Positions 47,056-63,775 of a stretch of 64,000 nt of DNA are shown piece by piece. The notes beneath the pieces were generated by a model that saw nothing but the letters and a program-made list of their open reading frames with translations, ran no database searches and was not told the DNA's origin. The DNA lies in the NCBI GenBank assembly GCA_019509985.1, contig JAEKLF010000037.1:8127-72126 (forward strand), given 5' to 3'. The translations under genes were made by a program, and so were the position numbers. The DNA is from Burkholderiales bacterium. GTDB taxonomy: Bacteria > Pseudomonadota > Gammaproteobacteria > Burkholderiales > Burkholderiaceae_C. The stretch's first letter is position 1. The number at the start of each line of letters is the position of its first letter.

Positions 47056-48840
47056 ATGCTGCTGATCCGTTTCGCCCTGGGCTTCTCGCTGTTCGAGACC
47101 CTGGTGCTGGCCGGCGTGCTGCTGGCCTGGGCCGACCGTGTGGCGGGCGGCCGGCTGCTGGCCGCGTTCCTGATCGGCATCGCGGTGTGGATCACCGGCA
47201 ACGAGCTGCCCAACTGGTTCGGCCTGGGCGCTGCACCCGTGGCGCTGCGGCTGATGGCCATGGCGCCGTTCGTGTCGGCGTTCTTCTTCCACTTCTGCGT
47301 GGTGTTCTGCCGCGTGCCGTTGGGCCGCGGCTGGGTGGTGGCGGGATACGCGCTGGGCGGCACGGCGTCGCTGTTGGCGCAGGTGTGGCGCGCCGCCGAG
47401 ATCGTCTGGTTCGAACCCATCGGCTGGATCGCCATCGCCGACCCGGTGGGGTGGGCCGCCAGCGTCGCCTGGATCGTGCTGGGCGTTGCCGGCGTGGCCG
47501 TGCTGCTGCGTGGCTTTGCGCAGGCGCAGCCGCCCGTACGGCAGCAGATCGCCGCGGTCACCGCGTCTTGCCTGTGGGGCCTGGTGTGCCTGAGCGGCTA
47601 CGGCCTGGTGCTGCTGCACCTGCCGGTCTACCCGGCGCCGCTGCTGCTGCTGCCGCTGTACCCGGTGATCCTGGTCTACGGCATCCTGCGCTGGGGCGTG
47701 TTCGTGGCCAACGCATGGGCCGGCCGCGCGCTGGTTTGGGCGCTGCTGCTGGCGGTGGGCGTGGCCATCGTGGCGCTGATGCCGCTGCTGCTGCCGTTCG
47801 AATCGCGCTGGCTCAACGGCCTGGCCGTGGCCGTCGGCTGCCTGGCGTTGAGCGGGCCGGTGCGGCGCTTCGTGCAGCGGCTGGTGTACCCCGGCGGCGA
47901 GGCCTCGGCCGCCGACCTGCAGGCCTGGCGCGAGGCGCTGCTGCCGGCTGAGACGCTGGATGAACTCGGCACGCGAGCCAACCAGCTGCTGAGCGCGCGT
48001 CTCGGCACGGCGGTCGAAGTCGTGTTCGATGCCGAAACGGCTCCCATACTGCCGCGCCTGAACTGCCACCGCGCGCCGTGGCGGCTGTCGTTGGAAGGCT
48101 GGTCCGCCGCGCCGCCGGGCCAGCGCCACCTGGCCGAGCTGTTCGGCAGCCTGGTGCTGGAGGCAGCCGTACGCGTGGAGCAAGCCCAGCAGCTGGCCGC
48201 CCGCGAGCGCGAGCGCCAGCTACAGGCGCGCTTGGCCGAACTGGGCGCGCTGGCCGCCACGGTGGCGCATGACATCCGCAACCCGCTGAACATCATCTCG
48301 ATGGCCGTGGCCACCGCCGATACCGACACCCGCCGCGAAGTGGCCGATCAGGTCGACCGCATCGCCCACCTGACGCGCGACCTGCTGGACTACGCCAAGC
48401 CGTGGAAGCTCAGCACCGCCGAGGTGGACGTGGCAGAGCTGGTGCGCCGTGTGGCGCGCCGCGCACCGGAGGTCGAGCTGGGCGCCGGCCTGCAGCAGCC
48501 GCTGCCGGCCACGCAGGACGCGCGCCGCGTGGAGCAGGCGCTGACCAACCTCGTCGAGAACGCGCGCACCGCCAGCTCCGGCGCCATCCACATCGACGCC
48601 GAGCGCGATGGCAGTCAGTTGAAACTGCACGTCTGCGACAACGGCCCCGGCGTGCCCGACGCCATCCGCGAGCGGCTGTTCGAACCCTTCGCGTCACGCA
48701 GCCCCGGCGGCACCGGGCTGGGCCTGGCCATCGTCGCGCGCGTGATGGCCGCGCACGGCGGCACGGCAGCCCTCACCGAGCGCCCGGGCTGGCGCACCTG
48801 CTTCACGCTGAGCTTCCCCGATGACACCCAACATCCCTGA
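47056..48840 (+). CDS. Membrane sensor histidine kinase (multi-TM N-terminus)
   Basis: About 8 TM segments, [28 protein letters not shown]. Confidence 0.88.
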
Positions 48841-50188
48841 AACCGGCCGCGTGATGCTGGTCGACGACGAGCCGGCGTTCCAGCGCCTGGGCGGCAACTT
48901 CCTTCGCAGCCTGGGCCACGAGGTGGACATCGCCGGCGACGGCGACGCGGCGCTGGCCCGCTTCGCCGAGCAGCGGCCCGAGCTGGTGCTGCTGGACCTG
49001 GCCATGCCGCCGCACATGGACCCCGAGCGCGGGCTGGAGCTGATCCCGCGGTTGGCCGGCGTGCCGGTCGTCGTGCTGACCGGGCACGGCGAGCACGAGC
49101 TGGCACTGCGCGCGGCGGAGCTGGGCGCGTGGGACTTCATCACAAAGCCCGTCGACCCCGACCTGTTGCGCTTCGTCGTCGCCCGCGCGCTGCGCAAGTC
49201 ACGGCTGGACGGCGAGCTGGTGCGCCTGCGCGCCGAACAAAGCACCGACGACCTGGGCCTGGTGGGGCAGACGCCGCCCATGCAGCAACTGCGCGCGATG
49301 GTGCGCCGCGTGGCGCCCACGCGCGTCAGCGTGCTGGTGCTGGGGCCTACGGGCACCGGCAAGGAGCTGGTGGCCCGCGCGCTGCACGACGGCAGCCCGC
49401 GCCGCGACGGGCCGTTCGTGGCCGTGCACTGCGGCGCGCTGTCGGCCGAGCTGCTGGAGAGCGAACTCTTCGGCCACCTGAAGGGCAGCTTCACCGGCGC
49501 CTACCGCGACCAGCCGGGTCTGGTGGAGGCCGCACACGGCGGCACGTTGTTCCTGGACGAGGTGGGCGAGATGCCCGCGGCCATGCAGGTCAAGCTGCTG
49601 CGCTTCTTGCAGGAGGGCAGCTTCGTGCCGGTGGGCGGTCGGGTGCAGAAGACCGCCGAAACGCGCGTGGTGGCCGCCACGCACCGCGACCTGGAGGCGA
49701 TGGTGCGCGACGGGGCATTCCGCGAGGACCTGTACTACCGCTTGAAGGGCGTGGTGCTACGCACGCCGCCGCTGGCCGAGCGCATGGCCGACGTGCCGGT
49801 GCTGGCCGCGCGCTTCCTGCAGCGCGTGGCGCCGCAGGCGCGCTTCTCGGCCGGGGCGCTGGCCTGGGTCACCGCGCGCGACTGGCCCGGCAATGTGCGC
49901 GAGCTGAAGGCCATCGTCGAGTCGGCCGGCGCGCTGCTACTGCCCGAGCAGAACGAGGTCGACACCGAACTGCTGCGCCTGGCCGCCGGCGACCACAGCG
50001 AGCCAACGCGCGCCGTCGAGCCGACCGCCAGCACCGGCGTGCTGGACGCGGCGCTGAACGAACTGGAGCGGCGGTTGATCCAGGACGCGATGAGCGCGGC
50101 CGGCGGCAACCAGTCCGAGGCCGCGCGGCAGCTTGGCGTGTCGCGCGTGGGGCTCATCAAGAAGCTCACGCGGCTGGGGCTACGCTGA
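48821..50188 (+). CDS. Sigma54-dependent NtrC-family response regulator
   Basis: REC domain (LVDDE, LLDLAMP), [23 protein letters not shown] (GAFTGA-like loop), [16 protein letters not shown], Fis-type HTH. Confidence 0.93.
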
Positions 50189-50714: not shown

Positions 50715-50894
50715 ATGAACCGCCACCTCTTCAACGTCATCGCACACCTCGGCTCTTCGAGCCGGCGCGATGGCGCCTGGATGGCGCCGGTCGAGGGACC
50801 GAAAGCGGAGGGCATGCAGCCCCAGGTCGCCTATGCCCACGACTGCGGTCGTGATCGTCATGACACCCACACATCGGGAGAAGGTCCCGGCTGA
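50715..50894 (+). CDS. Candidate leader peptide (59 aa; in-frame ATG also at 50646)
   Basis: Short ORF between the promoter and a terminator; stop is 23 nt before the terminator stem. Confidence 0.4.
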   Translation: MNRHLFNVIAHLGSSSRRDGAWMAPVEGPKAEGMQPQVAYAHDCGRDRHDTHTSGEGPG

Positions 50895-50917
50895 CGCCGC
50901 CCTTCCACGCTCTTCTG

Positions 50918-50958
50918 AGGCCCGGTATCCGCAAGGAACCGGGCCTTTTGTTTTGTTT
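50918..50958 (+). terminator. Intrinsic terminator / attenuator
   Basis: AGGCCCGGT-a-TCC-GCAA-GGA-ACCGGGCCT followed by TTTGTTTTGTTT. Confidence 0.85.
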
Positions 50959-51085
50959 CCGCCGCCGGGGCTGCCTCGGTGCCGCTGCGCAAGCGCAGCG
51001 CCTGCTCTTTCACAACTTGCATCGAGTGCCCGCCGACCACATCGGCGCGGCGCTCAAACTGGCAGGCGCCGAGGTTCGTCCTCGG

Positions 51086-51232
51086 CGGCCCTGCCCCATC
51101 TCGGGTGTGCCCACGCACAAGCATCGGCCGGCCCGGTGTGCATGTGCGCTCGGGCGGCCGCCTGTCGCGTGCAGCGACGCATCACTGGCTCGCGCAGGCC
51201 GGTCGCGTCGCGTGTGGACACAGCCGAGATGG
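51086..51232 (+). ncRNA. Candidate structured ncRNA with paired ends
   Basis: CCATCTCGG(g)TGTG pairs with CACA(g)CCGAGATGG; several internal hairpins; no convincing ORF. Confidence 0.4.
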
Positions 51233-51243
51233 ATTTGCCTTTT

Positions 51244-51318
51244 GCCCCGTTGGACTTCCGGTGAGGTCCTCGGCCCTTCAAGCCGAAGAGGCGGGTTCAA
51301 CTCCCGCACGGGGCACCA
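51244..51318 (+). tRNA. tRNA-Glu(TTC)-like, atypical C33
   Basis: GCCCCGT/ACGGGGC acceptor, GAC/GTC D stem, TCGGC-CCTTCAA-GCCGA anticodon arm, 4-nt variable loop, GCGGG-TTCAACT-CCCGC, encoded CCA. Confidence 0.8.
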
Positions 51319-51422
51319 GACCCTTCAACCCGAAGTCCCTCGTTGAGCTCACGCCCCGAGGGACGCAAACCGGCCGCAACGATTGGGCGGCGTCGGAACC
51401 CGTCACCGACAACCTTTCCCGT

Positions 51423-51499
51423 CCGGGCGTAGCTCAGCCAGGTAGAGCATCTGCTTTGGGAGCAGAGGGTCGCACGTTCAACTCGTGTCACCCGGACCA
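51423..51499 (+). tRNA. tRNA-Pro(TGG)
   Basis: TAGCTCAGCCAGGTAGAGC D arm, TCTGC-TTTGGGA-GCAGA, GCACG-TTCAACT-CGTGT, ACCA end; one C:A mismatch in the acceptor stem. Confidence 0.88.
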
Positions 51500-51509
51500 A
51501 CCATTTCAT

Positions 51510-51585
51510 GTCGCCATAGCTCAGCTGGGAGAGCGCCGGTCTGTCGAACCGGAGGTCGCGGGATCGAGGCCCGCTGGCGGCGCCA
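51510..51585 (+). tRNA. tRNA-Asp(GTC), atypical T loop
   Basis: GTCGCCA/TGGCGGC acceptor, CCGGT-CTGTCGA-ACCGG, T loop ATCGAGG instead of TTCRANY, GCCA end. Confidence 0.82.
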
Positions 51586-51692
51586 CATTTTTCTCCTGCG
51601 TGTTGTGCCACGTAGCCGTCCGGCTGCGCACCCGCATGCAACAGTCGGAGCACCGCTCCATCCACCGTGCCAGCCCAGGAAAGGAGGTCACC

Positions 51693-52253
51693 ATGCACGA
51701 CGTTTTGCAGTTGGACATCACCGGCCTTCCGCAGGCCTGGATCTCGGTGGAGGACGCCGCCGGCCTCGTGGCCACCGACTCGGTGGTCTGGTCAGCCGGC
51801 GAGCGGCCACTGGCCGTGCTGCGGGGCGGCTTCAACACCGTTACCGGCCGCCAGTCGATGCTGGAGGTGCCGCCCATCGTGGCCCTGCGCGGCGTGTCGA
51901 GGATAAACCTCTTCGACCTGACGCCGACCTTCAGCAAGCTCAAGGTCATCAAGCGTGACCGTTGCACCTGCGCCTATTGCGGCGACGTGTTCGACCTGCG
52001 TTCACTGACCGTGGACCACATCCAGCCCGACAGCCGCGGTGGGTCCTTAAGCTGGATGAACACGGTCGCGGCCTGCCGCAGCTGCAACATGCTGAAGGCC
52101 GACCGCACGCCGGACGAGGCCCGCATGCCGCTGCTGTTCGCGCCGTTCGTGCCCAGCCGCTTCGAGGACTTCATCCTCAAGGGCCGGCACATCCGCGCGG
52201 ACGTGCACGACTGGCTGGCTGCGCGCCTGCCGAAAGGATCTCGCCTCAGCTGA
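51693..52253 (+). CDS. HNH endonuclease
   Basis: AGGAGG RBS; RDRCTCAYCG...TVDHIQPDSRGG...WMNTVAACRSCNMLKADR. Confidence 0.92.
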   Translation: MHDVLQLDITGLPQAWISVEDAAGLVATDSVVWSAGERPLAVLRGGFNTVTGRQSMLEVPPIVALRGVSRINLFDLTPTFSKLKVIKRDRCTCAYCGDVFDLRSLTVDHIQPDSRGGSLSWMNTVAACRSCNMLKADRTPDEARMPLLFAPFVPSRFEDFILKGRHIRADVHDWLAARLPKGSRLS

Positions 52254-52383
52254 GGCGACAACGAATCTGCCGAGGAAAGCAGAGCGCTCACAGGTCGGGG
52301 TTTCGAAGCCCCACCGGTGCGCCAGGACCGGGTCCGCCCGTCGTCTCGGCGTATGCCGCCCCTGCCGGAATCGACGGATAGCC

Positions 52384-52438
52384 CGTGAGGCAAGGTTGAG
52401 CCGCAAGGCATTGGGTTCGATTCCCAACTTCACGACCA
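52384..52438 (+). ncRNA. tRNA-like mini-RNA (acceptor stem + T arm + CCA, no anticodon arm)
   Basis: CGTGAGG/CTTCACG 7-bp stem, A-CCA, TTGGG-TTCGATT-CCCAA, GCC-GCAA-GGC hairpin in place of the D and anticodon arms. Confidence 0.6.
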
Positions 52439-52439
52439 C

Positions 52440-52506
52440 TGGATAGCTCAGTCGGGTAGAGCAACGAACTAGTAGTTCGTCTGTCGCGGGTTCGACTCCC
52501 GCTCCA
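52440..52506 (+). pseudogene. Pseudo-tRNA (anticodon AGT) with broken acceptor stem and no CCA
   Basis: GCTC-AGTCGGGTA-GAGC, ACGAA-CTAGTAG-TTCGT, GCGGG-TTCGACT-CCCGC; only 4 acceptor pairs (TGGA/TCCA). Confidence 0.65.
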
Positions 52507-52772
52507 AAGCTTGGCCTTGAACGCCAATCCAAAACCGGTCGCAAGACCACCCGCCGAACGTGCGCCCCGGCCTTGGCCGGACCCGCGCATCAGCGGCCCG
52601 CGCTCGCGCGCCGGGCAAGCGGGGCTCTGCAACCACGGCCAGCCGAGAGCGTCTTCAGGGAGGAGGCGCTCGACGCGCACCGTGGCGCCAGGCCCTGGCA
52701 TCCGACGTCCGCACGGGTTGCTGTAACGGCACCCTCATCCCCATCACCACGCGTCACCACAAGGAGAACACC

Positions 52773-53909
52773 ATGACGATCAAGCGTGTGGCTGTGAAGA
52801 AGAACGAGCGCGGCATCCTGCTGCGCAATGGCGATTTCGAGCGCGTGCTGCAACCCGGCACGCACTGGCTGTTCGCCGGGCTGGACGAGCTGAAGGTGGA
52901 GCTGTTTGCCATCAGCCAGCCGGCCTTCGTGCACCTGCTGACCGACTACCTGCTGGCCAAGGAGCCCGCAGTCGTCGAGGCGGAGTTCCTGCGCGTCGAG
53001 CTGAACGAACACCAGGCGGGCCTGCGCACCGAGAACGGCGTGCTGGTCGAAGTGCTGCCGCCCGCCACGCGGCGCCTGTACTGGCGCGGCCTGGTGGACG
53101 TGCAGGTCGAGGTGATCGACCTGCGTGCGTCCGTCGAACTGCCCGCGGCCGTGGCCGCACGTCTGGCCCAGCCGCAACTGCGCCCGCGCGCGGTGACCGG
53201 CCTGGCCGGCGTGCTGCAGGTCGAGGTGCCGGAAACCGGCGCCGGCCTTCTGCGCGTGGACGGCAAGGTGGAGCGACTGCTGACCGCGGGTGCTTACGCC
53301 TTCTGGCGGTTCAACCGCAACGTGACGGTGGAGCTGGTGGACCTGCGGCTGCAGGCGCTGGAAGTGACGGGCCAGGAAATCCTGACCCGTGACAAGGTGG
53401 CGCTGCGGCTCAACCTGTCGGCCAACTGGCGCTACACGGACGTGCTGCGCGCGTTCGAGCAGTTGGCCAAGCCGGCCGACCACCTCTACCGCGAGCTGCA
53501 GTTCGGCCTGCGCGCAGCGGTGGGCACGCGCACGCTGGACGAGCTGCTGGAGAACAAGTCGGTCATCGACGAGGTCGTGACCGCCCAAGTGACGTCCAAG
53601 CTGGCCGGCTACGGCCTGCAGTTGGACGGCGTGGGCGTGAAGGACATCGTGCTGCCAGGCGAGATGAAGACCATCCTCGCCCAGGTGGTGGAGGCCGGCA
53701 AGGCTGCCGAAGCCAACGTGATCCGCCGCCGCGAGGAAACCGCGGCGACGCGTTCCCTGCTCAACACGGCCAAGGTGATGGAGGACAACCCCGTCGCCCT
53801 GCGCCTGAAGGAGCTGGAAACGCTGGAACGCGTGGCCGAGCGCATCGACAAGATCTCCGTGTTCGGAGGTCTGGACCAGGTGCTCAACGGGCTGGTGAAG
53901 CTCCGTTGA
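52773..53909 (+). CDS. Slipin (SPFH/band-7) family protein
   Basis: AAGGAG RBS; GQEILTRDKVALRLN, RAAVGTRTLDELL, RRREETAATRSLLNTAKVMEDNP..LRLKELE. Confidence 0.9.
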   Translation: MTIKRVAVKKNERGILLRNGDFERVLQPGTHWLFAGLDELKVELFAISQPAFVHLLTDYLLAKEPAVVEAEFLRVELNEHQAGLRTENGVLVEVLPPATRRLYWRGLVDVQVEVIDLRASVELPAAVAARLAQPQLRPRAVTGLAGVLQVEVPETGAGLLRVDGKVERLLTAGAYAFWRFNRNVTVELVDLRLQALEVTGQEILTRDKVALRLNLSANWRYTDVLRAFEQLAKPADHLYRELQFGLRAAVGTRTLDELLENKSVIDEVVTAQVTSKLAGYGLQLDGVGVKDIVLPGEMKTILAQVVEAGKAAEANVIRRREETAATRSLLNTAKVMEDNPVALRLKELETLERVAERIDKISVFGGLDQVLNGLVKLR

Positions 53910-53959
53910 GTGCCGCCCTGCCGGCTCGGCCGGCAGGGCTCCAACTCAAAGGAGAACCC

Positions 53960-54736
53960 ATGACTACGCCGTCATTGCAATCGGCCGTGCGGCGCGCCTA
54001 CGAAGTGTTCGGCGCCTACGCGGCACCCACCCAGCCGCTGGACGTCTGCACGTTCTGCTGCATGGACGAAGAACTGGAGCGCGAGATGCGCGCCGTGCCG
54101 TTGCGCAAGCTGAAGCGCCTGCACTTCTACGAGTACAGCACCGGCGCCAAGTCCGTCGATGGCCAGCCGGCCGACGAGGTGAAGTACCTGCTGCCACGCC
54201 TGCTCGAACTGCTGGCGGCCGGCGAGGAAACCCACCACTCGATCGAGCTGGCGCTGGATCGCGTGGGGCGCTGCCACGCCGGTGCCTTCAGCAACGAAGA
54301 GCGGGCCGTGCTCGACGCCTTCATGCTGGCCTGCTTTGACGCCTGCCTGCGCGGCGAGTGGGTGGCCGAGGACTTCTGGTACGACCTCGAAGACCCGCTC
54401 GCGCTGCTGGTGATGGCCGACTACGCCGGCCTCTCGCTGGCACCGTTGCTGCAGCACTGGACTGAACACCCGAGCCCGCAATCCACGATCCGCTTCGTCG
54501 AAAGCACCTACTGGGGTTTCTGGTCCAAGCACAAGATCACCAACGCCTTCGCGACCAACCGGCCGCGGCTGCAGGCAGTCTTCAAGGACTGGACGCTGTC
54601 GCTCGACACCAAGGCGGCCTTCACCATGAAGCTGCTGCTCCCTCATTTCCTGGATCAGGTCGAACAGACACCGTCCAACACCTGCGCGCCCTTCCCCGTG
54701 ATGGTGGACGCTGTGTTCGACCACCTGACCTACTGA
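53960..54736 (+). CDS. Hypothetical protein
   Basis: AAAGGAG RBS; CTFCC cluster, KYLLPRLLEL; co-oriented between slipin and rtcB. Confidence 0.7.
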   Translation: MTTPSLQSAVRRAYEVFGAYAAPTQPLDVCTFCCMDEELEREMRAVPLRKLKRLHFYEYSTGAKSVDGQPADEVKYLLPRLLELLAAGEETHHSIELALDRVGRCHAGAFSNEERAVLDAFMLACFDACLRGEWVAEDFWYDLEDPLALLVMADYAGLSLAPLLQHWTEHPSPQSTIRFVESTYWGFWSKHKITNAFATNRPRLQAVFKDWTLSLDTKAAFTMKLLLPHFLDQVEQTPSNTCAPFPVMVDAVFDHLTY

Positions 54737-54750
54737 TAGAAAGAACAATC

Positions 54751-55014
54751 ATGGAACCCCAACACATCCACGAAGACGTCCCCGGCGGCGTGCCACTGAA
54801 GATGTGGACGCAAGGCGTGCCAGTCGAAGACTCGGCCAAGCGCCAGCTGCAGAACGCGGCCCGCCTGCCCATCGTCTTCAAGCACATCGCCGCGATGCCC
54901 GACGTGCACTTCGGCATCGGCGCCACCGTCGGCTCGGTCATCCCCACCGTCAAGGCCATCATCCCGGCTGCGGTCGGTGTGGACATCGGCTGTTCTTCCG
55001 ACATCCACTTGTAA
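54751..55014 (+). pseudogene. rtcB: RtcB RNA ligase, 5' fragment interrupted at the DIGC motif
   Basis: LPIVFKHIAAMPDVHFGIGATVGSVIP...IIPAAVGVDIGC, then unrelated SSDIHL*; no rtcB remainder found in the window. Confidence 0.9.
54979..55008. other. Candidate recombinase core/attachment site (left junction)
   Basis: GTGGACATCGG-CTGTTCTT-CCGACATCCAC: 11-bp imperfect inverted arms (9/11) around an 8-bp spacer, exactly at the rtcB breakpoint. Confidence 0.6.
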
Positions 55015-55118: not shown

Positions 55119-55430
55119 GTGGCCATTCAGCGCAGATCGTTCGGAGTTGCCGTATTGGAGCGGCTGCGGGCCACCGCATGCACCACGGCCTTCGGGCGGT
55201 TGGATGGCCACTTCAAGCGCGATTCAACGTTCATCCCAACAAAGGACCCCAACACTGAGCGGTGGCACTGTTCCACCTCAAAGGGTGAGTGCGAGCTGCT
55301 GGTCAATGGCCCAAAGTGGTACGACACCAGAACCCGGGAGGGTGGAGGTGGCTCGATTGATCTAGCGATGCAGTTGTACCGACTCGACTTCGTCGATGCG
55401 GTGAACCTCTTGGTGGGCAGGGGCCTATGA
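55119..55430 (+). CDS. Small conserved-looking protein, first gene of the recombinase module
   Basis: AGGAGG RBS before GTG; KWYDTR..GGGGSIDLAMQL...DFVDAVNLL recalls the primase zinc-binding-domain tail; ATGA overlap with the next gene. Confidence 0.6.
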   Translation: MAIQRRSFGVAVLERLRATACTTAFGRLDGHFKRDSTFIPTKDPNTERWHCSTSKGECELLVNGPKWYDTRTREGGGGSIDLAMQLYRLDFVDAVNLLVGRGL

Positions 55431-56611
55431 ACCTCTACTTCAGCACCAAGGACTTTGCAGTCGACGGTCAGCACTACGAAGGCTTCCCGATTCTCGTGGA
55501 CGCCTCGGGTGCAGTTGTTGAGGTCGCCCTGCTCTTCTTCGTGGACGACCTCCTCAACCGCGGTGGCGCGCGAGACCTGAAAACGTGGGCTGCCTATGGC
55601 CGGCACATGTACGACTACTTCGGCTACCTGGAGCAGCGTCTGGCCTGGGATCACATCCCAGCTGAGGGTAGTGGACAGCTCTCACCACTAGCTGCCTACG
55701 TGCGATGGTGCGACACCGACGTCCGCAATGCTCCTGGCTACGTCAACGACAAGCGCGCGACCATCGAGCGCTTCTACGAATGGGCAAAGCGGGTCGGGCG
55801 CATTGATGAGCTGCCCTTCACCCGAAGTGAAGTCATTTCATCTAGCGCTGATGGGGTGCTTGCGCACGCCTCGGCAACTCGAGGCCGACGGTCGGCGTCC
55901 AACCTGCATCTGCCTGAGAACGACGACGACGTGCCAGACATGGTGCTGTCGCGTGGCCAGATCGACGCAGCGTTTGAACACGCGACGAATCCAACGCACC
56001 GTGCCGTCCTGCACCTGAGCCTGAATGCCGGGCTGAGAGCGGAGGAGCTCGCGACGTTCCCGATGAAGTACGTCGTCGACACCAGCAGGCTATCGCCCAA
56101 GGTGAAGACGGTGCCCGTGACCCTTGATCCGAAGGACATGCACACCAAGAACGACAAGAAGCGAACAGTGCGACTGTCGGTGCGGTGCATGAACCTGCTC
56201 TGGCAGTATCGAGAGGCCGTTAGGCCACGACTGAGGGCTCGGGCGAAGGGAGGCCCCGCCGACAGCGGAGTGCTGCTCCTGACCCGGTTTGGCGTGCCAT
56301 TCGTCGCCGACGGCTTCGTGTCACCCATGGCGCGCCTAGGGAAGCGTGCTGGATTCCACATCCACCCGCACATGCTCAGGCATACGTTTGCCACCCATAC
56401 GCTAGCCTCCCTCGAGGACTTGAAGCGTGCCGGCAGGCTCAGGAGCTCGCCGCTCGTGGTTCTCAAGCGTCTTCTGGGCCATTCGAAGACAACCAACACA
56501 GAACGCTACCTGCATCTGCTGGATTCAATCGAGGACGTCTACGGCACCCGCTACCAAGCGGAGATTGACGAGTTGGCGCTGGGGTATCTGAACGAGGCAG
56601 AGAAGAAGTAG
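55427..56611 (+). CDS. Tyrosine recombinase 1
   Basis: NAGLRAEEL (R), HPHMLRHTFA (HxxR), LLGHSK (H), TERYLH (Y). Confidence 0.92.
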   Translation: MNLYFSTKDFAVDGQHYEGFPILVDASGAVVEVALLFFVDDLLNRGGARDLKTWAAYGRHMYDYFGYLEQRLAWDHIPAEGSGQLSPLAAYVRWCDTDVRNAPGYVNDKRATIERFYEWAKRVGRIDELPFTRSEVISSSADGVLAHASATRGRRSASNLHLPENDDDVPDMVLSRGQIDAAFEHATNPTHRAVLHLSLNAGLRAEELATFPMKYVVDTSRLSPKVKTVPVTLDPKDMHTKNDKKRTVRLSVRCMNLLWQYREAVRPRLRARAKGGPADSGVLLLTRFGVPFVADGFVSPMARLGKRAGFHIHPHMLRHTFATHTLASLEDLKRAGRLRSSPLVVLKRLLGHSKTTNTERYLHLLDSIEDVYGTRYQAEIDELALGYLNEAEKK

Positions 56612-58219
56612 ATGGCGAAGAAGAAGGACTTCGGGGTCGGAGGGCCGCCACCGAAGCCGGTGATCCCCATTTTCCCGACGAGTAGGACGCTCGAACGTGC
56701 GGCCGTGAGCGCTCTCGTGATCCCGCTACCTCATGGCGTCGACGCGGAGTTCGATTGGTGGGAGTACCTCGGGCATGGGTTCGATGACACGGTGTCGGCT
56801 ATCACGTTGGAGATGCGCGCCATGGTTGCGCGCGGCAGACCGAAGCCCTTGGCCTTGAAAACCATCGCCAACGGCGGCGTGATTCACTGGTTCAGGTTCT
56901 GCGTTGAGCGCGCCTCTGCGGGCACACCACCGACGTTGGACAGCATCAACGCCGAGACGATTGAGGTCTTTGCCGGTTGGCTCGCGACCCGTTTGAAGCC
57001 CGACGGCGAGCTGTGGTCGTTGAACACTGCGCGGACGGTCTACCAGAAGGTCAAGACCGTGCTGGAGGCACTTGCAGATCGCAAACTGCTGCCAAGGGAT
57101 GGGCTGTTTCCTAAGAACCCTTTCCCGGGGGCCACTGACATCAACCGGCGCCGCAACCACATACTGCCTCTGTCTGATGGCGAACGAGAGCGCATCCTCC
57201 GCCCGCTGGCGATGCAGGTTGCCCAGGTGTACGACGGCACCCACCCCGGCACACCGTCGACGCAATTGGGGCTGTGCGTCTTTGCCATCTTCTTGAAGAC
57301 CGGCGTCAACCCCACCCCGTTCCTCGAAATCCCTCGGGACCTGCAGAAGTGCTTCATGAGTCATCCGCGCGTGAACACGAGGATTCTGGTGACCTTCAAG
57401 CGCCGGGCGAACAAGCGCACCAAGACGCCGCTGGAGCCTGAGTCTCGGGTGGTGTCGCTGGACGTCTATAAGCTCTGTGAGCGCGTTCTGGGCCTCACCG
57501 AGGGTGCGGCCAAGCTGGCGGTTGGCACGAAGCTGGAGGGCTTGCTGTGGGTCTACGAGCTCGATGGTGCACCCCGTGGCATGACGACCGAGACGCTGAG
57601 CGCCGTCGCCAACGCATTCACGTCGCGTCACGCCCTTGTGCGCGACGACGGCACCCGCCTGAAGATGAGCAGCCAGCTCTTCCGCAACACCAAGCTCAAT
57701 CGCGTCTGGCGAGCGTCCAAGGGCGACCTGCTCGCAACGGCGCGAAGCGGATCGAACACGCCGACTGCCGCTCAGCGATACCTCGCAGTCACTCCCGACA
57801 TGCTCGACGAACATCGCATGGCAGGCGAGGTGCTGGTGGACACCCTGTCGGCTGCCGGCCCGAGGGACAACACGCCGCACAGCGGCTGCAAGGATGCCTT
57901 CAACGGCGAGTTCGCGCCGAAGGACGGCTCGCCTTGTGTCGACTTCCTCTCGTGCTTCCGATGCAAGTCTCAGGTCATCATCCAGGACGACCTCTACAAG
58001 CTGTTCTCGTTCTATTGGGCGCTGTTTTCGCAGCGGAGCCACATTGGCCAAGACAACTGGCGCAAGCTCTTCGGCTGGGTCACGAGGGTGATTGACCGCG
58101 ACATCGCGCCGAAGTTCGATGCGACGGTCGTGGAACGAGAGAGGGCTCGCGCCCGCTCCGAACCACACCCGATGTGGCGGTCTCCGTCGGTCTTAGCTGC
58201 ACTGAGGTCCATCCAATGA
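56612..58219 (+). CDS. Tyrosine-recombinase-fold protein 2 with degenerate catalytic residues
   Basis: KTGVNPT (N at the usual R), QLFRNT, GSNTPTAAQRYL; C-terminal Cys cluster CKD..C..FLSCFRC; starts directly after the upstream stop. Confidence 0.7.
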   Translation: MAKKKDFGVGGPPPKPVIPIFPTSRTLERAAVSALVIPLPHGVDAEFDWWEYLGHGFDDTVSAITLEMRAMVARGRPKPLALKTIANGGVIHWFRFCVERASAGTPPTLDSINAETIEVFAGWLATRLKPDGELWSLNTARTVYQKVKTVLEALADRKLLPRDGLFPKNPFPGATDINRRRNHILPLSDGERERILRPLAMQVAQVYDGTHPGTPSTQLGLCVFAIFLKTGVNPTPFLEIPRDLQKCFMSHPRVNTRILVTFKRRANKRTKTPLEPESRVVSLDVYKLCERVLGLTEGAAKLAVGTKLEGLLWVYELDGAPRGMTTETLSAVANAFTSRHALVRDDGTRLKMSSQLFRNTKLNRVWRASKGDLLATARSGSNTPTAAQRYLAVTPDMLDEHRMAGEVLVDTLSAAGPRDNTPHSGCKDAFNGEFAPKDGSPCVDFLSCFRCKSQVIIQDDLYKLFSFYWALFSQRSHIGQDNWRKLFGWVTRVIDRDIAPKFDATVVERERARARSEPHPMWRSPSVLAALRSIQ

Positions 58220-60099
58220 GCGCTGCCCTGGCCTATGAGCTACATGCGGCTGCGTTGGAGCTGTCGCCGGCGGAGCGAGACGACCTCGTCATCTCGTACG
58301 TTCAGCTGGCGGGCGGCGAGCGCATTCCGCTCTCTCGCTACGGTGACCCCGTCTGGAACTACACGCCATTCTTCCCCGGCGCAGCCCGCGGCAAGCAGGA
58401 CAAGGAGATTGTCTGGGCCAAGACTCCTGACGAGTGGGTTCCGTCGATGCGAAGCGCAGCCGCTGCGCTCACATACCGCAAAGCTCCTGGCGGTGTCCGA
58501 CTGGACCCGTCGACGATCCCCAAACGGCACGTCATCCTGAATGCCTTCGCGAAGTGGGCCAGCTCAGAAGGCATCAGGCGCTTCGGCGACGTCCGCGCTG
58601 CCGACTTGACCAGGTACATCCAGAAGCTTCGCGACGACGGTCTCTACGACCGTAGCCTGGCCAGCCACATTGCCATCCTGCGCAAGGTACACGAGCTTCG
58701 GGGAGCAATGCTCGACAGCTTGACCGACGAAGCTGCGACCGCGCTGCGGTTTGACCAGCTCGGCGCGCTCTGGGAGCCTGACGCGGTCAACGACCGCCGT
58801 ACTGAGCTCATCCCGCTCGCTGAGGCGTCAGCATTGTTCGTGGCCGCCAGAGAGCACCTGACCAGGGCACCAACCCTACTGCGTCTGCGTGACGACCTGG
58901 CTGAACAGTGGGAGGCCGCAAAGGTCACCTGGGACCGGAGGGTATGGGGTGACGACGTCAAGAAGCCGGCGGTGCGAGCTGCTGGCTTCCGAGACGCCCT
59001 TGAGTTCGAGTCCGCCGTCAGTGACATCCGGACTGCGGCCTACATCGTCCTCGGCATCACCACGGGTTGCCGCGTCCATGAGCTTGGCGAGGCGGAGGTG
59101 GGCTGCGTCTATCCGGACACGGTCGACGGTGAGACGTATTGGTGGCTGAAGGCCGCGACGCGCAAGATCGGCGACGGACCGATGCGTTGGCTGGCACCTG
59201 AAGTGGCCAAAGAGGCCTCCGACGCCCTCGAATGGCACTCTGCCCCCTTGCGAGCCCGCATCGCCGCTGAGCTGCCTGTCATGCGAGAGCAGTTCACAAC
59301 CGCAACCACAGAAGCGGAAAGAGCCAGGCTGGCGGCGCATATTCTTGAGCTTGAGCGCAATGCCGACCGCTTGTTCCTGAGCGAGTCGACGCGGGGCGTT
59401 GTCTCAACCGACACCAAGTCGCACAACAAGCAACTAAAGGCCTTCGCTGCACGCAAGGGCATCAAGCTCGGCGTGCCGCTTGCCACCCACCGGTTCCGCC
59501 GCACCTACGCCGTTATCGTCGTGCATCTGAACAAGGGGCCGCGCATCGACATGGTGACGCTGCAGCGCCACTTCAAGCACGCGAGCGTGCTCATGACGGA
59601 GTGGTACGCCGAGCTGTCCGAGACCGACAGGGAGCTCTACGAGCTCATCGAGACGGAGACAGGCTTCTTCGACATGGCGCTGGTCGACCACTGGCTGGAT
59701 GGATCGACGCCGCTGGCCGGCGGCCTGGGTGCCCGAATCAAGGCGTACGCAGGCAAGCATCACCAGCCCATCTTCTTCAAGACCCGGCGCGAGTTCGTTG
59801 ACAGCATCCGGGAGGGCATCAACATCCGGAGCACAGGGCACAGCTGGTGCCTGGCAGAGGCGAAGGACTGTGGCGGGCAAGGGCTTTTCGATGCTCCCCA
59901 GTGCGGCAGTTGCGGCAACGGCGTCATCGACGACAACTTCCGAGAGGTGTGGCAGAACCTTCGTCAGGACCACGAGGACTTGTCCAAGCTCGACGACATT
60001 GGGCCTGGCGGCAGGGCAAAGGCGGCGAAGGGCCTCGCAGCGGCCGAAGCCGTCCTCGCACAGCTTGAACAACCTGACGACGAGACCGCCGATGTCTGA
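58216..60099 (+). CDS. Tyrosine recombinase 3
   Basis: TTGCRVHEL, THRFRRTYA, HFKHASVLMTEWYA; C-terminal Cys cluster; ATGA overlap with the previous gene. Confidence 0.88.
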   Translation: MSAALAYELHAAALELSPAERDDLVISYVQLAGGERIPLSRYGDPVWNYTPFFPGAARGKQDKEIVWAKTPDEWVPSMRSAAAALTYRKAPGGVRLDPSTIPKRHVILNAFAKWASSEGIRRFGDVRAADLTRYIQKLRDDGLYDRSLASHIAILRKVHELRGAMLDSLTDEAATALRFDQLGALWEPDAVNDRRTELIPLAEASALFVAAREHLTRAPTLLRLRDDLAEQWEAAKVTWDRRVWGDDVKKPAVRAAGFRDALEFESAVSDIRTAAYIVLGITTGCRVHELGEAEVGCVYPDTVDGETYWWLKAATRKIGDGPMRWLAPEVAKEASDALEWHSAPLRARIAAELPVMREQFTTATTEAERARLAAHILELERNADRLFLSESTRGVVSTDTKSHNKQLKAFAARKGIKLGVPLATHRFRRTYAVIVVHLNKGPRIDMVTLQRHFKHASVLMTEWYAELSETDRELYELIETETGFFDMALVDHWLDGSTPLAGGLGARIKAYAGKHHQPIFFKTRREFVDSIREGINIRSTGHSWCLAEAKDCGGQGLFDAPQCGSCGNGVIDDNFREVWQNLRQDHEDLSKLDDIGPGGRAKAAKGLAAAEAVLAQLEQPDDETADV

Positions 60100-63531: not shown

Positions 63532-63775
63532 GTGTCGCCCTCAAGCTGTATAGAACCGGATGCTACGAGACCGCCTGCTAGAGTCAGCCTTGAAGCCGGC
63601 GTTGCCGGCTTTCCTGCTTTTCCTCCCTGAGCAGGAGCTTCGGCTCGATGACAGCGACGAGGCTTTGCCGCCCCGGCATGTCCGGGGCGTTCTTTTTGGC
63701 CGACGCGCGGCCCGAGAAGCTGGCCTCCGCATGCCGCTTAACAGCCGTGTTACATTTTTCCTAGGGGGGAGAAAA

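Follow-up and report, generated by a model that had tools for sequence, protein, structure and literature searches.

Among the described tRNA-like RNAs, those closest to the element studied here accompany RtcB. [quoted passage not shown] A second described context is that of the long tRNA arrays, beside which an HNH gene is conserved (PMC8421152), and in Anabaena translational stress induces the tRNA array together with HNH, slipin and rtcB (PMC8421152, PMC10272220). Here we present a 55-nt element, hereafter the mini-tRNA, from the 64,000-nt stretch of DNA that was analysed (the window). It is a new miniaturised, CCA-bearing variant among the tRNA-like RNAs of RtcB repair operons, and the RNA to which it contributes is encoded immediately ahead of the Band-7/slipin gene in a locus of RtcB RNA repair and translational stress. 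The genes of this locus are as follows.

47056-50188, forward strand: histidine kinase and sigma54-type response regulator genes
51244-51318, forward strand: tRNA-Glu UUC of the remnant array (ARAGORN, Rfam)
51423-51499, forward strand: tRNA-Pro UGG of the remnant array (ARAGORN, Rfam)
51510-51585, forward strand: tRNA-Asp GUC of the remnant array (ARAGORN, Rfam)
51693-52253, forward strand: HNH endonuclease gene, 186 aa (Pfam HNH, HNH_5)
52773-53909, forward strand: Band-7/SPFH (slipin) gene, 378 aa (Pfam Band_7; PDB stomatin matches, residues 188-375)
53906-54736, forward strand: gene of a 276-aa protein, between Band-7 and rtcB
54751-55014, forward strand: 5' fragment of rtcB, first 81 codons or so (tblastn against RtcB of relative L009, residues 1-81 only; Pfam RtcB, positions 1-51)
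55427-56611, forward strand: ORF 1 of the rtcB insertion (Phage_integrase)
56612-58219, forward strand: ORF 2 of the rtcB insertion (without Pfam match)
58174-60099, forward strand: ORF 3 of the rtcB insertion (weak integrase and SAM-like matches)

The tRNA array upstream of HNH comprises 3 to 27 genes among relatives (seven in L003 and three in L009), and HNH homologues close arrays of 27 tRNAs in Methylibium and 23 tRNAs in Variovorax, both on megaplasmids. Besides these megaplasmids (H1, H3), searches of phage and plasmid DNA with the locus returned mostly generic tRNA-Pro matches. In the window, the T loop of tRNA-Asp (AUCGAGG) is unusual, as is the D arm of tRNA-Glu. The histidine kinase and sigma54-dependent response regulator genes were found upstream here and in one JGI contig, and were absent from L003 and L009. 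When the HNH protein was compared with Cas9/IscB models, the match was confined to the HNH domain. Its homologues suggest Roseateles/Pelomonas (Burkholderiales) as the source. The non-coding stretch that separates HNH from Band-7 measures 519 nt and holds the mini-tRNA. Band-7 itself has more than 7,500 homologues, and the AlphaFold model of its N-terminal 191 residues reached a mean pLDDT of 55.7, too low for a fold search. The 276-aa protein, encoded in a subset of loci (L009, L013, L022, L165 and L173), had no match in Pfam, NCBIfam, PADLOC or PDB. The gene that follows slipin in the E. coli STEC639 and Citrobacter loci is annotated as a nucleotidyltransferase; the 276-aa protein showed no similarity to the one of E. 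coli, and this identification was rejected.

In most relatives a full-length rtcB follows Band-7. In the window, rtcB is interrupted at about position 54994, within GVDIGC, by three tandem recombinase-like ORFs, and its remainder is absent from the window. This three-ORF insertion looks like the 'recombinase in trio' type. As rtcB is disrupted in this genome, the system may have been inactivated, with the RNA left behind. The presence together of a remnant array, an array-type HNH and Band-7/RtcB indicates that the window locus joins a shrunken tRNA array/HNH unit to a Band-7 RNA/slipin/RtcB unit. A sigma54 promoter search in the window returned nothing above chance, and the promoter of the RNA was not found in HNH-type loci by the sigma54 search or by a sigma70/terminator scan, which was uninformative. 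Elsewhere in the window, positions 63611-63697 matched the Rfam family anti-hemB (Burkholderia RNA 7) with 56.1 bits, above threshold.

The mini-tRNA and its parts were assigned as follows.

52384-52438, forward strand: mini-tRNA, or module 1 (sequence, covariation, column conservation)
52384-52390 with 52428-52434, forward strand: acceptor stem, 7 bp
52400-52409, forward strand: GCC-GCAA-GGC hairpin, GNRA-capped, 3 bp, inside a GG-containing linker
52411-52427, forward strand: T arm, with a 5-bp T stem and the T loop TTCGATT
52435 and 52436-52438, forward strand: discriminator A and encoded CCA (3' end)

Read from its 5' end, the element consists of CGTGAGG, CAAGGTTGA, GCC-GCAA-GGC, A, TTGGG-TTCGATT-CCCAA, CTTCACG, A and CCA. 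Thus, every part that the earlier note had described was present, namely the 7-bp stem with a single G-U pair (G6-U67), the A discriminator, the CCA, the TTCGATT loop and the GCC-GCAA-GGC hairpin. The mini-tRNA shares with canonical tRNAs the 7-bp acceptor, the 5-bp T stem, a T loop of the form TTCRANN and the discriminator with CCA, and it lacks the cloverleaf with a D arm and an anticodon arm carrying a 7-nt loop; just 20 nt of linker lead from the acceptor stem to the T arm. Neither ARAGORN nor the Rfam tRNA model (RF00005) called a tRNA at 52384-52438. For the window copy, minimum free energy (MFE) folding gave a structure of -20.5 kcal/mol (z -2.7) that retains the acceptor stem and loses the T arm. 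In single-sequence folding, the acceptor stem and the T arm appeared together in only 11 of 42 copies, and the inner part often took a non-tRNA fold. As the tRNA-like fold was not reliably recovered in this way, MFE folding was weighed as weak evidence beside covariation.

The comparative evidence came from the HNH homologues, which were present in at least 571 GTDB species genomes, 80 of these loci being examined. A covariance model of the mini-tRNA (R1), built on 31 copies, matched 42 loci at the same position in relatives (36-75 bits, E <= 4e-6), including 11 outside the seed, and the distance from the HNH stop to the mini-tRNA in relatives was 116-162 nt. The same model matched only once in the 64-kb window, and no real tRNA of the same megabase exceeded 31 bits. 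In the model-based alignment (A5), 93% of the cells concerned were paired versus 70% in shuffles, 14 out of 15 base pairs showed changes on both sides, and compensatory changes were found in all three helices. None of 500 shuffles reached any of the observed pairing measures, and the covariation score was 0.577 versus 0.136 or less when the partners were slid by 1-3 columns. Acceptor stems such as CGTGAGG/CTTCACG, AGGAATG/CATTCCT, GGTGAGG/CCTCACC and GAAGCAT/ATGCTTC exemplify the range of sequences.

These data bear directly on whether the element is a decaying pseudo-tRNA, that is, an array tRNA that lost its middle by deletion and has been drifting since. Such an origin would fit a locus with a shrinking, variable tRNA array, and distant homologues do carry a full-size tRNA-like module at the position of the mini-tRNA. 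However, the same truncated architecture was found in more than 40 species, in which the adjacent HNH protein is 64-94% identical to that of the window, with compensatory changes in three helices and an invariant CCA. Real decay of the locus also looks different, as L010 (6696-6742) shows: in this relative, the nearest in GTDB when ranked by HNH identity (94%), the mini-tRNA is truncated within the T loop and no Band-7 gene is left. Because the mini-tRNA is conserved and covaries across relatives, a one-off deletion or a drifting pseudogene is excluded; the decay scenario is contradicted by the covariation data and we give it almost no credence.

Among the 42 copies, CCA was present in all and a purine discriminator in 39, the T loop TTCGANT was nearly invariant and the hairpin loop was mostly GCAA. 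The linker GG was nearly invariant as well (38 of 42). It is likely the analogue of D-loop G18/G19, docking on the T loop; rather than a simple deletion of the D arm, this points to a tRNA elbow that is probably still in place. The earlier description of the D and anticodon arms as replaced by a short segment held for the 20-nt linker with its hairpin, with the nuance of the GG that was kept. Four loci (L047, L049, L072 and L078) carried a D-arm-like GAGG-TYGGYT-CCTC hairpin in place of the linker and hairpin, and these alternative linkers indicate that lineages trimmed the middle of the tRNA differently and kept the same outer shell. What selection has kept is the 12-bp acceptor/T-arm helix, the T loop with its GG partner (the elbow), the purine discriminator and the CCA, the decoding part having been discarded. 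The proposal that the element is a selected tRNA mimic with acceptor, T arm and CCA and no anticodon was therefore borne out by its conservation and covariation in more than 40 species, as was the argument that a clean GNRA cap points to selection over random decay, since this cap recurs among relatives. Altogether, the mini-tRNA is very probably a selected module of a Band-7-associated RNA.

An invariant CCA, an intact acceptor stem and a purine discriminator are also what an aminoacylated mini-carrier would show, its CCA end being charged by a synthetase and used off the ribosome or in a tmRNA-like reaction, and some synthetases can charge minihelices. Against this, no conserved aminoacylation identity pair was found at 1:72, 2:71 or 3:70 in the 42 copies: position 1:72 was GC, AU or CG, 3:70 was UA, GC, AU or others, 2:71 varied too, and G3:U70 occurred in only three copies. 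Moreover, neither an aminoacyl-transferase nor an SmpB-like gene nor a tag reading frame was linked to it, and ARAGORN called no tmRNA. A charged carrier is, on these grounds, very improbable. That the acceptor sequence is free and its pairing is kept suggests instead that the mini-tRNA is recognised by shape rather than by sequence.

A tblastn census showed that Band-7 was the next gene in every mini-tRNA locus except L024, which carries a deletion, and L043, where the contig ends, and that RtcB usually accompanied Band-7. The order mini-tRNA, module 2 (described below), Band-7 was found in about 45 of the 80 HNH loci, and the mini-tRNA was absent from HNH loci that had Rsr/RtcB instead or that were without Band-7. 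Band-7 loci with the mini-tRNA and without HNH were found as well, in B. cenocepacia (L090) and in four metagenomic loci (L135, L139, L126 and L160). The HNH gene was consequently rejected as the partner of the RNA: the mini-tRNA tracks Band-7, its constant genomic partner, and HNH is a neighbour rather than an obligatory partner. Conserved copies beside HNH/rtcB genes, which the earlier note had suggested looking for, do exist; beyond what it had proposed, the 55-nt element is part of a larger RNA, and its true genomic partner is the Band-7/slipin gene of the RtcB locus.

This larger RNA is a bipartite tRNA-like non-coding RNA of about 300 nt, consisting of a 5' domain, the mini-tRNA as module 1, a full tRNA-like module and 3' hairpins. 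Around the mini-tRNA, its parts in the window are the following.

52267-52377, forward strand: 5' domain, about 110 nt (alignment A6, RNAalifold)
52437-52510, forward strand: module 2, full-size tRNA-like (ARAGORN Thr(AGT), Rfam tRNA)
52511-52590, forward strand: 3' part of the RNA (alignment A6 and alifold, metatranscriptome contig ends)

In the 5' domain, a covarying closing stem (52267-52273 with 52371-52377) surrounds two covarying hairpins, and the compensatory pairs of alignment A6 include columns 39-174, 48-165, 51-163, 107-153 and 110-150, among many. Its invariant motifs are GCTCACAGG, CCGGTG and ATGCCG, and the core motifs recur in the loci of B. cenocepacia, Photobacterium and Subdoligranulum, a Firmicute. 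The closing stem ends 6 nt before the mini-tRNA. In the 3' part, an optional hairpin (TTGGCC..GCCAA) was found together with an invariant one at 52537-52548 (GGTC-GCAA-GACC, which is GGTC-GNAA-GACC across relatives) and the invariant motif GCCGAACG at 52553-52560; the transcript ends approximately at 52564-52589. Conserved sequence runs on from GCCGAACG to the Band-7 start codon and is possibly a leader or regulatory element. Rfam contained no family that matched the 5' domain, even at E <= 10, or the 3' part. The RNA family that carries the mini-tRNA has no Rfam entry, and soil and plant metatranscriptomes contain it in abundance.

Specifically, the stretch was present in more than 20 soil and plant metatranscriptome runs. 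In four metatranscriptomes it was assembled as single contigs, which started at 52265, 52292, 52300 and 52325 and ended at 52564, 52572, 52588 and 52589, and in these four the HNH and Band-7 coding regions were without coverage. Similarly, a fifth run showed a depth of 24-160 over the RNA versus 0 over HNH. The RNA-only contigs and the read depth indicate that the RNA is made, that it measures about 300 nt and that it is more abundant than the flanking genes. Assembled RNA-seq contigs crossed both borders of the mini-tRNA, in libraries of a kind that under-samples 55-nt RNAs, and the mini-tRNA is co-transcribed with module 2.

The full-size module 2 always follows the mini-tRNA after 1-10 nt, and in the window its call begins inside the CCA of the mini-tRNA (52437/52440). 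It scored 47.5 bits against Rfam tRNA, over model positions 4-67 only. Its D, anticodon and T arms are normal, its acceptor has 4 bp (TGGA/TCCA) and it lacks CCA. Across relatives, the D arm and T arm are invariant and the anticodon stem covaries, and the 7-nt 'anticodon' loop differs in almost every relative (44 relatives compared). In L058, L088 and B. cenocepacia (L090) this loop is replaced by a stem capped with a GNRA tetraloop, which means that module 2 cannot be a decoder. The hypervariable loop looks like diversification or lack of constraint, and the tRNA-like modules could be decoys or sentinels that bait tRNA-targeting toxins, the mini-tRNA offering the acceptor end, CCA and T loop. 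Cleavage would then soak up the toxin, or yield 2',3'-cyclic-phosphate fragments, which would either act as a damage signal or be rejoined by RtcB. The location in an RtcB repair locus would suit such a role, array tRNAs have been suggested to act as a 'sponge' (PMC8421152), and RtcR of Salmonella is reported to be activated by tRNA fragments (PMC7790460, PMC10159003). However, the mini-tRNA has no anticodon loop, the usual toxin target, no toxin gene is linked and no RtcR is present in the window locus, and the variability of the module 2 loop is equally explained by lack of function. We consider a decoy doubtful.

Module 1 takes other forms in other lineages. A tandem pair of T arms 62-82 nt apart was found in 46 out of 63 metagenomic Band-7 loci with enough upstream sequence. 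By a heuristic parse, in which a linker of 30 nt or less was classed as mini and one of 33-41 nt as full-size, module 1 was mini in about 32 of these 46 loci and full-size in about 11, mostly without CCA, which shows that the anticodon arm of module 1 is dispensable. By the same heuristic parse, about 20 of the 32 mini forms carried CCA, which is thus not universal beyond the HNH-locus clade. Photobacterium has a 72-nt tRNA-like module 1 (54 bits in Rfam), followed by a module 2 with a 4-bp acceptor, and in Subdoligranulum a GNRA hairpin and T arm are followed by a second T arm. The idea that homologues might be full tRNAs and the window copy a one-off deletion is therefore correct for Photobacterium and about 11 metagenomic loci, as far as a full-size tRNA-like module is concerned, and incorrect in that the mini form is widespread and maintained. 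In non-HNH loci, a sigma54-type -24/-12 motif lies ahead of the RNA, with rtcR adjoining in Citrobacter. In the slipin loci of E. coli and Citrobacter, a YrlA-like form whose acceptor is loop-closed comes after rtcR and a TGGCAC-N5-TCGC motif.

L091, 3689-3860 (E. coli STEC639): YrlA-like element, a sigma54 -24/-12 motif and then a T arm and loop-closed acceptor-like hairpin
L092, 3680-3850 (Citrobacter): YrlA-like element of the same build

Rfam reported no YrlA-like element in these two loci at E <= 0.1.

The minimal good bacterial RNase P substrate comprises an acceptor, a T arm and a purine-CCA. The mini-tRNA could thus be pure punctuation, an RNase P signal that separates the 5' domain from module 2 or the operon mRNA, the excised piece having no role of its own. 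The sufficiency of these parts for RNase P speaks for it, as do the freedom of the acceptor sequence under maintained pairing and the position of the mini-tRNA, which lies 6 nt beyond the stem that closes the 5' domain and 1-10 nt ahead of module 2. In contrast, the conserved GG linker and the recurrent GNRA-capped hairpin exceed the needs of a minihelix signal, RNA-seq contigs span the mini-tRNA junctions, and in some lineages the place is taken by a full-size tRNA-like module that often lacks CCA. A role restricted to punctuation therefore appears unlikely, if somewhat less so than a decoy.

We lean towards a reading in which the mini-tRNA serves the slipin/RtcB operon RNA as a tRNA-shaped handle or as a processing site. 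The acceptor, T arm and RCCA together form the classic bacterial RNase P substrate and are also a substrate of CCA-end enzymes. RNase P cleavage, release as a free 55-mer, the protein partners and the physiological role are points that we infer. By its tRNA mimicry, the mini-tRNA would be recognised by tRNA-handling enzymes, RNase P foremost, and would provide the operon RNA with a tRNA-like handle or a defined end. The RNA might use this handle to cooperate with RtcB and the slipin assembly, along the lines proposed for the pairs YrlA/Rsr and b7a-tRNA/Band-7. A bolder version, which we hold only tentatively and think improbable, is that the mini-tRNA is set free as a stable, separate RNA of 55 nt with a CCA end and serves the slipin-RtcB machine as its working small-RNA cofactor; it could be a tRNA-end surrogate to sense or buffer acceptor/CCA damage, or a ligation partner of RtcB. 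If true, anticodon-less bacterial mini-tRNAs with a role outside translation would form a widespread class.

In this locus, the Band-7 RNA combines two tRNA mimics with a structured 5' domain. Evolution has repeatedly reduced the first mimic to its acceptor/T-arm/CCA core, which pinpoints the tRNA surface that the system needs. Being a compact 55-nt object with clear mutational predictions and many natural variants, the mini-tRNA offers a route to how slipin cages and RtcB use RNA.

As in the b7a-tRNA system, a tRNA-like non-coding RNA lies beside a Band-7 gene and RtcB. It is module 2 (52437-52510), not the 55-nt element, that fits the words 'strongly resembles an authentic tRNA' with which b7a-tRNA is quoted; directly upstream of it, the 55-nt element adds a truncated second module whose acceptor is complete and which carries CCA. 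Compared by the description quoted in the preprint (10.1101/312249), b7a-tRNA is one tRNA-like RNA, and that quotation mentions no mini form. YrlA (RF02553, rsr-yrlBA-rtcBA operons) is alike in being a tRNA mimic in an RtcB repair operon with a T-arm/D-loop elbow and no decoding. However, YrlA is circularly permuted, with a loop-closed acceptor stem between the T and D arms, a Ro/Rsr-binding stem and no CCA, whereas the acceptor of the mini-tRNA is open, has 7 bp and ends in CCA, and no Rsr gene is present in the locus. A YrlA-like closed-acceptor form does occupy the position of the mini-tRNA in the E. coli and Citrobacter slipin loci. Membership of the window RNA in YrlA was rejected: a permissive Rfam search of 50800-53000 gave 21.7 bits versus a threshold of 69, in a match that reaches from the mini-tRNA's T arm to the D arm of module 2.

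With the long tRNA arrays (L-arrays), the locus shares a 3-tRNA remnant array, an array-type HNH and rtcB; L-array members are decoding tRNAs, whereas the mini-tRNA and module 2 are not, and these follow Band-7 rather than the array. The tRNA-like domain of tmRNA likewise combines an acceptor stem, a T arm, a reduced D loop and CCA with no anticodon arm, but the mini-tRNA has no mRNA-like part, no pseudoknots and no consistent G3:U70 alanine identity. Finally, in mascRNA (MALAT1), viral 3' tRNA-like structures and acceptor-T minihelices, the tRNA shape recruits RNase P or the CCA-adding enzyme without decoding; these examples are eukaryotic or viral, whereas the mini-tRNA is encoded on a bacterial chromosome, as one module of a larger operon RNA.
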